DNA from: an uncultured Pirellulales bacterium
Lineage (GTDB): Bacteria; Planctomycetota; Phycisphaerae; Sedimentisphaerales; SM23-30
Reading direction: 5' to 3'
Assembly: GCA_964574885.1 (NCBI GenBank)
Contig: CAZNQT010000061.1
Coordinates: forward strand, 1-13,918
Length of the DNA: 13,918 nucleotides
In this document: positions 565 to 6,497 of the stretch, one piece after another
Numbering within the stretch: position 1 is the first letter of the stretch
Layout of the letters: each line of letters opens with the position of its first letter
Notes under the pieces: model-generated
What the model was told of the DNA's origin: nothing
What the model saw: only the letters and a program-made list of their open reading frames with translations
Databases searched by the model: none
Made by a program: the position numbers and the translations under genes

Positions 565-729
565 TTTTACAAAATTGAGGTTAGGCATATTTTGGAAAGA
601 AAAAATTCTTGCATAATTTTTTCTTTTCAAATCGCAAGTTGTTGTGTAGTAGTATGTTATAAACTTATTTAAGAAAATCCTTTCCGGGATTTTCTTAAAT
701 AATTTATGCCTAACCTCAATTTTGTAAAA
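565..729. repeat. Symmetric composite inverted-repeat element in the 5' leader of the Nramp-like operon: 25-bp perfect terminal IRs enclosing two 16-bp hairpins.
   Basis: 565-589 ttttacaaaattgaggttaggcata is the exact reverse complement of 705-729 tatgcctaacctcaattttgtaaaa. Hairpin A has stem 592-607/615-630 with loop cttgcat. Hairpin B has stem 665-680/687-702 with loop tttccg. Each hairpin sits 2 nt inside an IR arm and a 34-nt AT-rich core lies between them. Confidence 0.55.
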
Positions 730-5126: not shown

Positions 5127-6497
5127 TCATTTGTATTTACGGAGAAAATATCGATATTGATGGTAAGACAGGCCCACGTCGCGGGCGGCCTGGGCCTGGT
5201 TGCCGGCAGCCTGCTCCAGCGCTTCCGTGATGAGGTGTTTTTTAAAGGCTTCCACCTTTTCGTTAAAGGTATTGCCTCTTATGGCAGTGGACGTTTCCGG
5301 TAAAAAGCCCAAATCCTCCGGAGTAATTTCATTGGTGGTATCGCGATAGGCGGCACGCTCGATAATATTTTTCAGTTCGCGGACATTGCCGGGAAAATCA
5401 TACTTTTCCAGGACGTCCAAAGCGGTTTTACTGAGCCGTTTGCCGCCGAGGGAAGGAATTTCCTGCATAAATTGAGATAGAAAGTGTCGCGCCAATAGGG
5501 GGATGTCTCCTTCTCTCCGGCGTAGTGGCGGCACCGAGATGATCTCAAAACTGAGGCGATCATAGAGGTCGCGTAGGAATTTGCCTTCCTCCATCTTCTT
5601 TTTCAGATCGACATTAGTGGCGGCGATGATACGCGTATTGACCTGAATCTCCATTGATCCCCCTACCCGGGTAAAGGTGCCGTATTCCACCACGCGGAGA
5701 ATCTTTTGTTGGAACGGAAGCGACATATTGCCAATTTCATCCAGAAACAGTGTGCCGCCGCTGGCCAACTCAAATTTGCCGTGCACCTGGTGATCGGCGC
5801 CGGTAAAAGCGCCTTTTTCGTGGCCAAACAACTCTGCTTCCAGCAAGGAATCCGGAAAGGCCGAACAATTGACCACCACCATGGGCCGACCGCTGTCACC
5901 GGCGGCAGTATGGATCGCCCGCGCCACCAACTCTTTCCCCGTTCCGCGCTCACCGAGAATCAACACTGGACGTGGGATGGTCGAGACGCGTTCGATCTGT
6001 TCGAGAACTTTTCTGATCTGAGGTGAGTCTCCGCCGATCCGGAACCGCTGCCGGGCCGTTTCCTGGAGCAGCATATTTTGCTCCCGAAGGATTCGGTTGC
6101 GATGGATTAGATTCAGATGGGGGCGGAATTTATTCAAAAAGGTGGTAACGCGATCGCCCAGTTTACCGGTCCGAACAAGAAAATCGTTGGCGCCGGCTTG
6201 AATGGCCTGGGAGACAATTTCCACATCTCCTCGCTCGGCCACGATCACAATCGGCAGGTCCGGAAATTCCCGACGAATCATCGGCAATAATTCAATGCCG
6301 CTCGACTGCCCATCGCCGATTTCATAATCCATAATCAGCAGATCCCCCGTCAATCCGCTGCGCAATTTCTCCAACAGACGCTGAGCGGAAAACACTCTCT
6401 CAATTTGACAGTCATTCTTGGATGCCTGCGTGAACGCTTCGATGAGAGTATCGAGCCGATTTTCAGGCGTATCAAGAAAGATAAATTTTCTATTCAT
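5127..6497 (-). CDS. Sigma-54-dependent transcriptional activator (NtrC-family response regulator: receiver, AAA+ sigma-54 interaction and Fis-type HTH domains).
   Basis: The receiver domain carries a phospho-acceptor-like Asp (LLIMDYEIGD). Walker A is GERGTGKE. The GAFTGA motif (EKGAFTGA) defines sigma-54 contact. Walker B is LFLDEIG. The C-terminal HTH is AARDVGLSYHQYRYFLRKY. The track ORF begins at a TTG (6521). The ATG at 6497 (MNRKFIF...) is the more likely start. Confidence 0.9.
   Translation of the reverse strand: MNRKFIFLDTPENRLDTLIEAFTQASKNDCQIERVFSAQRLLEKLRSGLTGDLLIMDYEIGDGQSSGIELLPMIRREFPDLPIVIVAERGDVEIVSQAIQAGANDFLVRTGKLGDRVTTFLNKFRPHLNLIHRNRILREQNMLLQETARQRFRIGGDSPQIRKVLEQIERVSTIPRPVLILGERGTGKELVARAIHTAAGDSGRPMVVVNCSAFPDSLLEAELFGHEKGAFTGADHQVHGKFELASGGTLFLDEIGNMSLPFQQKILRVVEYGTFTRVGGSMEIQVNTRIIAATNVDLKKKMEEGKFLRDLYDRLSFEIISVPPLRRREGDIPLLARHFLSQFMQEIPSLGGKRLSKTALDVLEKYDFPGNVRELKNIIERAAYRDTTNEITPEDLGFLPETSTAIRGNTFNEKVEAFKKHLITEALEQAAGNQAQAARDVGLSYHQYRYFLRKYK

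Follow-up and report, generated by a model that had tools for sequence, protein, structure and literature searches.

The element at positions 559-734 of the window (the whole stretch of DNA that was analysed, an entire NCBI contig of 13,918 nt) is very probably a MITE, a non-autonomous DNA transposon, which would have inserted into the upstream region of an Nramp-like gene and duplicated a target of 7-8 bp, GTTATAA(T). This assignment was reached from a size below about 500 bp, terminal inverted repeats (TIRs), target-site duplications, dispersed copies, empty orthologous sites, absence of coding capacity and absence of an Rfam match. The preliminary description of the region had placed three readings side by side, namely a MITE-like insertion, a structured cis-regulatory RNA and a binding platform for a dimeric regulator, and it is the first of these that is borne out by other copies, target duplications and empty orthologous sites.

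The left arm (565-589, TTTTACAAAATTGAGGTTAGGCATA) and the right arm (705-729) were exact reverse complements over 25 nt, as first described, and none of 200 shuffled sequences contained such a 25-mer repeat even with three mismatches allowed; the symmetric structure at 565-729 is not due to chance. The length first given, about 165 bp, did not hold, since comparison with other copies placed the ends at 559/560 and 734, which makes the true element 176 bp long with TIRs of about 30 bp, 25 bp of them perfect. An imperfect inverted repeat of 37 nt (86%) could be followed from 553 to 741. Outside the arms lay the left terminus GAAGAG (559-564), a part that was variable across the family, and the right terminus GTTCA (730-734), which was assigned from the family alignment. 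Two AT-rich internal hairpins, also noticed earlier, were confirmed with arms of 17 nt (94% complementary) and 19 nt (95%). Subterminal hairpin H1 (591-631) consisted of TTTGGAAAGAAAAAATT, a 7-nt loop and AATTTTTTCTTTTCAAA, with arms at 591-607 and 615-631, and H2 (662-704) consisted of AACTTATTTAAGAAAATCC, a loop and GGATTTTCTTAAATAATT, with arms at 662-680 and 687-705; a variable centre (632-661) separated them. The G+C content was 26% in the element region against about 52% in the flanks. The RNA fold of 545-770 reached -84.3 kcal/mol (z = -11.6 against shuffled sequence), and the DNA fold of 559-734 had a z of -14.0 on the same kind of comparison. No ORF of at least 60 aa was present inside the 176 bp, where a mechanical listing gave only ORFs of 25-26 aa. 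The Shine-Dalgarno (SD) sequence AAGGAG (756-761) and the ATG (767-769) of the Nramp-like gene, both on the plus strand, are host sequence outside the element.

The heptamer GTTATAA was found at 552-558 and 735-741, directly abutting the element on both sides; with the inclusion of G559, the duplication extends to 8 bp, of which 7 match. The preliminary description had seen these heptamers as displaced and reported no clean target-site duplication; since the element extends 5-6 nt beyond each perfect 25-mer, they in fact flank it directly as a duplication. The TATAAT at 737-742 that it had pointed out is present (GTTATAA plus T742), but it is the right-hand copy of duplicated target DNA, because the orthologous empty leaders carry a single TACAAT with which the right-hand copy aligns. 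The left-hand copy of the split -10-like motif now reads TATAAG.

Empty sites were recognized through the Nramp-like protein, which had close homologues at 86%, 83% and 82% identity. The leaders of three orthologous ThuA-Nramp loci (L122, L123 and L124) ran uninterrupted across the insertion point, so that presence and absence of the element are both represented. L123 and L124 kept an upstream gene end matching the ThuA-like ORF of the window, and L122 kept the same downstream genes (GFO/IDH/MocA and enolase-like). The empty leader of L123 reads ...caaaatacgcactttTTACAATtgccgtacaggtaaggag..ATG, against ...ctcttGTTATAA[176 bp]GTTATAAttgccg... in the window, and the empty sites carry one (T)TTACAA(T) where the window has GTTATAA. 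The target motif TACAAT is a -10-like hexamer conserved in the relatives, 14 nt upstream of the SD. Since the TATAAT of the window matches the TACAAT of the relatives, the element breaks up the native upstream region instead of having evolved within it.

The same intergenic region held a second lineage-specific insertion of about 50 nt at ~434-483, which was absent from the orthologous leaders. It contained a perfect 11-bp G+C-rich hairpin with arms at 444-454 and 465-475 (CACCCCCAAGC / GCTTGGGGGTG) and CGA on both sides, and no further copies of it were found in the window or in the fetched loci. The Nramp-like protein itself (767-2587) had 606 aa, and the Pfam Nramp domain matched residues 78-334 only. 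Most of its database homologues were about 476 aa long and covered about 52% of it, and only a small group of about 590-620 aa aligned over the full length.

The exact 25-mer was found in one genome of a species-representative collection, a MAG labelled Pirellulales (L001), where the copy sits between two unrelated minus-strand ORFs. A 19-mer common to all four arms then known (AAAATYGAGGTTAGGCATA) matched at least 120 metagenome contigs; further copies, the search for which had been set in the preliminary description as the test of a mobile element, are thus carried by at least 120 contigs. All family counts given here are among the listed matches, which comprised 121 element-carrying loci and 0.71 Mb of loci in all. 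These loci contained 80 arm pairs, from which 76 distinct complete copies with flanks were obtained, and nhmmer found 141 non-overlapping copies or fragments in the same 0.71 Mb, 77 of them near full length. In the window only one copy was found by nhmmer, some listed contigs carried two copies, and many single arms lay where contigs stop, as is common for repeats on which assemblies break. The listed copies had a common architecture of ~5 variable nt, a 25-nt arm, H1, a variable centre, H2, the second arm and ~5 variable nt.

Target duplication was a property of the family. Flanking direct repeats scoring at least 7 were found for 46 of the 76 listed copies and those scoring at least 9 for 34 of the 76, against 1.0% and 0.13% in a null in which left and right flanks were paired between different copies. 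The typical duplication in the listed copies was 9-11 bp long, for example TATTGCTACAA (L010), TTTATAATAAG (L026), TGAAGGACGA(A) (L072) and TGAAATCGGTTAT (L119), and the duplicated sequences were AT-rich without a clear consensus. Between duplication and conserved arm, the family alignment showed 5-6 element-specific nt.

The window copy belongs to a minor subfamily, in which the arms begin with TTTTRC and the 6-nt termini resemble CTGAAC or GAAGAG. Its members L001, L048, L084b and L091 had AT-only duplications of 6-7 bp, against 9-11 bp in the main subfamilies, a range below which the 7 bp of the window copy also falls. The closest listed relative was L091 with 87% identity, the family average being 74%. 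These data gave no sign of recent or current mobility.

All complete listed copies were intergenic, and their neighbours were unrelated to each other (rpsF, ribH, a ZnuA-like gene and others) and occurred in both orientations. Pairs of copies bracketed single housekeeping genes, namely those for ribosomal protein S6, lumazine synthase and a ZnuA-like binding protein; such pairs were seen at L025:3202-4331, L041:3992-5291, L084:9350-10202 and L003:8931-10444. Since essential genes are bracketed, transcription must cross the elements or start within them.

More distant Nramp homologues carried the source labels Planctomycetota and Sedimentisphaerales. Genes near the copies encoded Tat and lipoprotein signal sequences, and one ORF had a prepilin-type N-terminal segment, features which we take to be typical of Planctomycetota. 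Together these labels and signals point to Planctomycetota as the hosts of the family. The host of the window was probably a Phycisphaerae/Sedimentisphaerales-like planctomycete, and the contig names suggest that the carrier contigs come from sediment metagenomes.

Solo arms in the middle of contigs had a recurrent junction, GGCATA|ACTCT, as expected from a deletion that joined two GCATA direct repeats, one at the inner end of an arm and one at the outer end of its partner (TTTTGCATAACTCT). Such remnants were located at L009:~5650-5690, L015:~1300-1335 and L049:~500-540 and in L035, L019 and L109, and many solo arms lay just upstream of an SD and start codon. In further fragments, the deletion ran from a hairpin loop to the far arm. 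These internal-deletion derivatives, together with the arms at contig ends, fit a decaying and poorly assembling repeat. One locus pair differed at a shared insertion site: L055:2680-2854 and L112:11724-11999 are orthologous, with flanks about 95% identical and the same duplication (TTAGACCAAAT), and hold members of different subfamilies in opposite orientation, whose arm ends are 165 nt and 266 nt apart. This could have arisen by in-place inversion or conversion via the arms, or by repeated insertion at the exact site.

No transposase gene adjoined any arm among the listed element-carrying loci, and no cognate autonomous IS with matching ends was present among the 121 loci (0.71 Mb). Arm pairs 0.5-3 kb apart, which were collected as nhmmer half-elements, were two MITEs flanking ordinary genes in each case and gave no autonomous element. 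The mid-contig solo arms had been candidates for the ends of an autonomous element and turned out to be the internal-deletion derivatives described above. When 525 ORFs of the loci were clustered all against all, no multi-copy group resembling a transposase emerged, and viral, plasmid and phage collections gave no match to the element. As for the IS5 family (IS903/ISAba12-like, ends GGCTTTGTTG...), only loose end similarity was found, and no transposase.

Promoters in the element were also considered. The element as an outward promoter was rejected, since no conserved outward sigma-70-like site was found in the family. A weak sigma-70-like site pointing inward was seen at the H2 end in at most 27 of 63 copies; the window copy had one in each arm. 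By eye, no match to the sigma-54 pattern GG-N10-GC was seen in the leader.

Conservation was not uniform along the element. In an alignment of 63 copies, pairwise identity was 94% in the arms, 91% in the H1 stem and 93% in the H2 stem, against 64% in the H1 loop, 68% in the H2 loop and 68% in the centre. The outermost 5 nt were the least conserved part (57%), which is unusual for transposon tips. Judged from these sequence comparisons, the internal hairpins appear to be under constraint, which could come from a requirement of the transposase or from a role as RNA at host level, and the data favour neither. Covariation was thin, with 6 pairs showing double changes against 4.7 in shuffles: one H1 pair had a compensatory change (AU 50, GC 7, GU 5), a second H1 pair varied as UA 35 and AU 6, and no H2 pair with a compensatory change was present in the 63-copy alignment. 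Mismatches read on the top strand were 23 G.U and 3 A.C in H1, and 38 A.C and 10 G.U in H2 (alignment A2, 63 copies). With this opposite skew, pairing in each hairpin is better on the strand that runs inward from the nearest element end; since sequences were counted, not independent events, the skew is only a hint.

Longer variants carried insertions of 22-42 nt, richer in G+C, at the tips of the H1 and H2 loops or close to them. Such insertions were present in the H1 loop of L004, L017, L050, L076, L083, L110 and L121 and in the H2 loop of L041, L092 and L104; an example of the H1 module is TCCCCACTTTCGTGAGGACAAG, and the modules lengthen the helices. The longest variant, L112 (L112:11724-11999), had an extra insertion in the centre too and reached 276 nt, and in its predicted fold the insertions cap H1 and H2 with stem-loops. 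Insertions that extend a helix point to single-stranded DNA or RNA folding back on itself more than to an operator in duplex form. Rfam searches with the window element and with L112, at gathering and at permissive thresholds, returned only sub-threshold hairpin noise.

The position of the copies relative to ribosome-binding sites was unexpected. An SD-like motif (GGAG, AGGA or GAGG) lay 13-19 nt from one end in 53 of the 76 listed copies, whereas 2.7% of random intergenic positions on the same contigs satisfied a similar, though not identical, rule (an SD core at 14-18 nt with a start codon after it). The motif was on both sides in only 2 of the 76, and a start codon with an open frame followed it in 38 copies. 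Outward of the element, 49 of about 64 occurrences of GGAG within 60 nt fell at 14-18 nt, and complementary motifs in the outward flanks had no positional peak. Examples of the spacing are L105:3383-3557, L032:1148-1330 and L089:1988-2162. Either end could face the gene (25 copies against 30), and the ribosome-binding site was host sequence that had not been duplicated. The window copy was an outlier with its GGAG 23 nt from the end, and others in its subfamily also fitted poorly.

Copies with perfect duplications showed the same SD bias (about 7/13), and in the reconstructed intergenic spacers, which were 20-100 nt long, the insertions lay at the end nearest the SD. We infer that the spacing reflects target choice more than survival bias. 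Possibly, and we advance this tentatively as somewhat short of probable, the transposition machinery picks its target relative to the ribosome-binding site, and the family is a mobile element aimed at translation-initiation regions whose hairpins act single-stranded. The MITE literature that was consulted yielded no case of target choice relative to ribosome-binding sites. Two further ideas were tried and rejected. A target that is always a -10 box would fit the window copy, but TAnnnT had no peak upstream of the SD in 326 genes and the duplications had no -10 consensus. An outward ATG in each arm fused in frame to the downstream gene was excluded by end-to-start distances that covered all three residues modulo 3.

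The two regulatory readings in the preliminary description have to be weighed against these results. A riboswitch or attenuator that serves the Nramp-like operon alone would suit the leader position and the very stable fold, and metal regulation of a transporter is plausible, but the same leader exists in three relatives without the element, copies stand beside dozens of unrelated genes in both orientations, a target duplication flanks the element, and with covariation thin and no Rfam match even at permissive thresholds, a dedicated cis-regulatory RNA is extremely improbable. Palindromic operators in duplex DNA, serving a dimeric regulator of the operon, could draw on the AAGAAAA half-site common to the H1 and H2 palindromes. 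The spacing of the half-sites is not kept, however, since the loops vary and take the 22-42-nt insertions, and the platform would be a mobile element that adjoins unrelated genes in both orientations and is missing from the orthologous leaders, which conserve a different motif; we consider it highly improbable. That motif, CGCCGGATTTAATCGGTACGATT at 505-527 of the window, was largely invariant in all four orthologous leaders and partly palindromic (CCGGATTTAATCGG), and from its sequence conservation it is a better candidate than the MITE for the native regulatory site of the Nramp-like cluster.

An extension of the MITE explanation, compatible with it, is that co-option has turned the element into a mobile leader or a regulatory module, the hairpins acting in RNA or single-stranded DNA and the copies being placed or retained upstream of ribosome-binding sites because they alter mRNA stability, processing or translation. 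Stems as conserved as the arms (91-93% against 94%) beside loops and centre at 64-68% speak for such a role, as do the loop insertions that fit fold-back better than a duplex binding site, the one compensatory H1 pair, the opposite G.U and A.C skews of the two hairpins, the spacing from SD-like motifs (53/76 against 2.7%), and the copies upstream of or between essential genes such as rpsF, which would be transcribed through or be start sites. Stem conservation is nevertheless explained equally well by a requirement of the transposase, covariation barely exceeds that of shuffles (6 pairs against 4.7, none in H2), and the skew does not count independent events. There is also no conserved outward sigma-70-like promoter, orientation to the gene is random (25 against 30), and the subfamily of the window breaks the spacing rule. 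Co-option is thus rather unlikely, and the MITE explanation holds with or without it.

The closest functional counterpart of this MITE family is the Correia element (CREE/NEMIS) of Neisseria. Correia elements are likewise MITEs, of ~100-160 bp with ~26-bp TIRs, present in many copies and mostly upstream of genes, and in both families transcripts can fold into a long arm-arm stem. RNase III cuts this stem in Correia elements, which can also invert in place (PMC10969869); the opposite orientations at the same site in L055 and L112 may be compared with such inversion. Correia elements duplicate TA and this family 6-11 bp, and the former have functional outward promoters and an IHF site, whereas no conserved outward sigma-70-like promoter was found here. 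The sequences are unrelated, the host phylum is another, and this family is marked by conserved subterminal hairpins. The differing duplication and sequence ruled out a Correia element proper.

MITEAba12 of Acinetobacter is 113 bp long with 9-bp duplications in AT-rich targets, and has only inverted repeats in common with its proposed partner ISAba12 (PMC6382973). The main subfamilies here resemble it in their ~9-bp duplications in AT-rich targets, and its repeat GGCTTTGTTGCACAAA is loosely like the end AAGGCTTCTGCAAAAT (GGCTT.TGCA.AA), a weak match that needs a gap. The ends here begin two nt further out, with A(A/T), the inverted repeat is ~30 bp instead of 16 bp, no partner IS was found among the listed loci, and the window subfamily has 6-7-bp duplications. 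Kinship with ISAba12/MITEAba12 is only a lead.

Other intergenic repeats were more distant. ERIC/IRU, RUP and similar MITE-like repeats of bacteria are imperfect palindromes that are co-transcribed with their neighbours and can affect mRNA processing (PMC10969869); they differ in sequence and host, and no fixed spacing from ribosome-binding sites is reported for them. REP2 of Neisseria and IR of Borrelia are found directly in front of many genes and contain two internal stem-loops (PMC3184786), but they have no TIRs and themselves include a promoter, ribosome-binding site and ATG, whereas here the ribosome-binding site is outside the element. REP/BIME sequences were rejected, being 20-40-nt G+C-rich palindromes with GTAG/CGTC heads and neither TIRs nor duplications, while both are present in the element, which is AT-rich and 176 bp long. 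A full-text literature search with the arm sequences and for MITEs in Planctomycetes/Sedimentisphaerales gave no description of the family. Apparently, this is an undescribed MITE family, widespread in sediment Planctomycetota. The element is of an ordinary kind, and the ribosome-binding-site spacing is the part worth following.

Which kind of transposase acted, and what the insertion does to the Nramp-like gene, we infer as follows. A transposase supplied in trans would mobilize the MITE by binding its inverted repeats and cutting the target at staggered positions, 7 bp apart for this subfamily and ~9 bp for the main ones. The target in the window was the conserved -10-like TACAAT/TATAAT motif, 14 nt upstream of the SD. 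If transcription starts upstream of the insertion, the mRNA would carry a very stable folded leader of 176 nt, and the 25-30-bp arm-arm stem could be a substrate of RNase III, by analogy with Correia elements. Alternatively, transcription could restart at the right-hand TATAAT, without the native upstream sequence.

The structure upstream of the Nramp-like gene was a tempting lead to a metal riboswitch or operator, and that lead is now removed. As the insertion split the conserved -10-like motif, the strain may express its transporter cluster unlike its relatives. Many contigs end in the family, so that the MITE fragments metagenome assemblies, and the family can mislead searches for RNA motifs. 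If the bias for positions 15 nt upstream of ribosome-binding sites is due to targeting, this would be an unusual way of choosing targets and would add to variation in gene expression.
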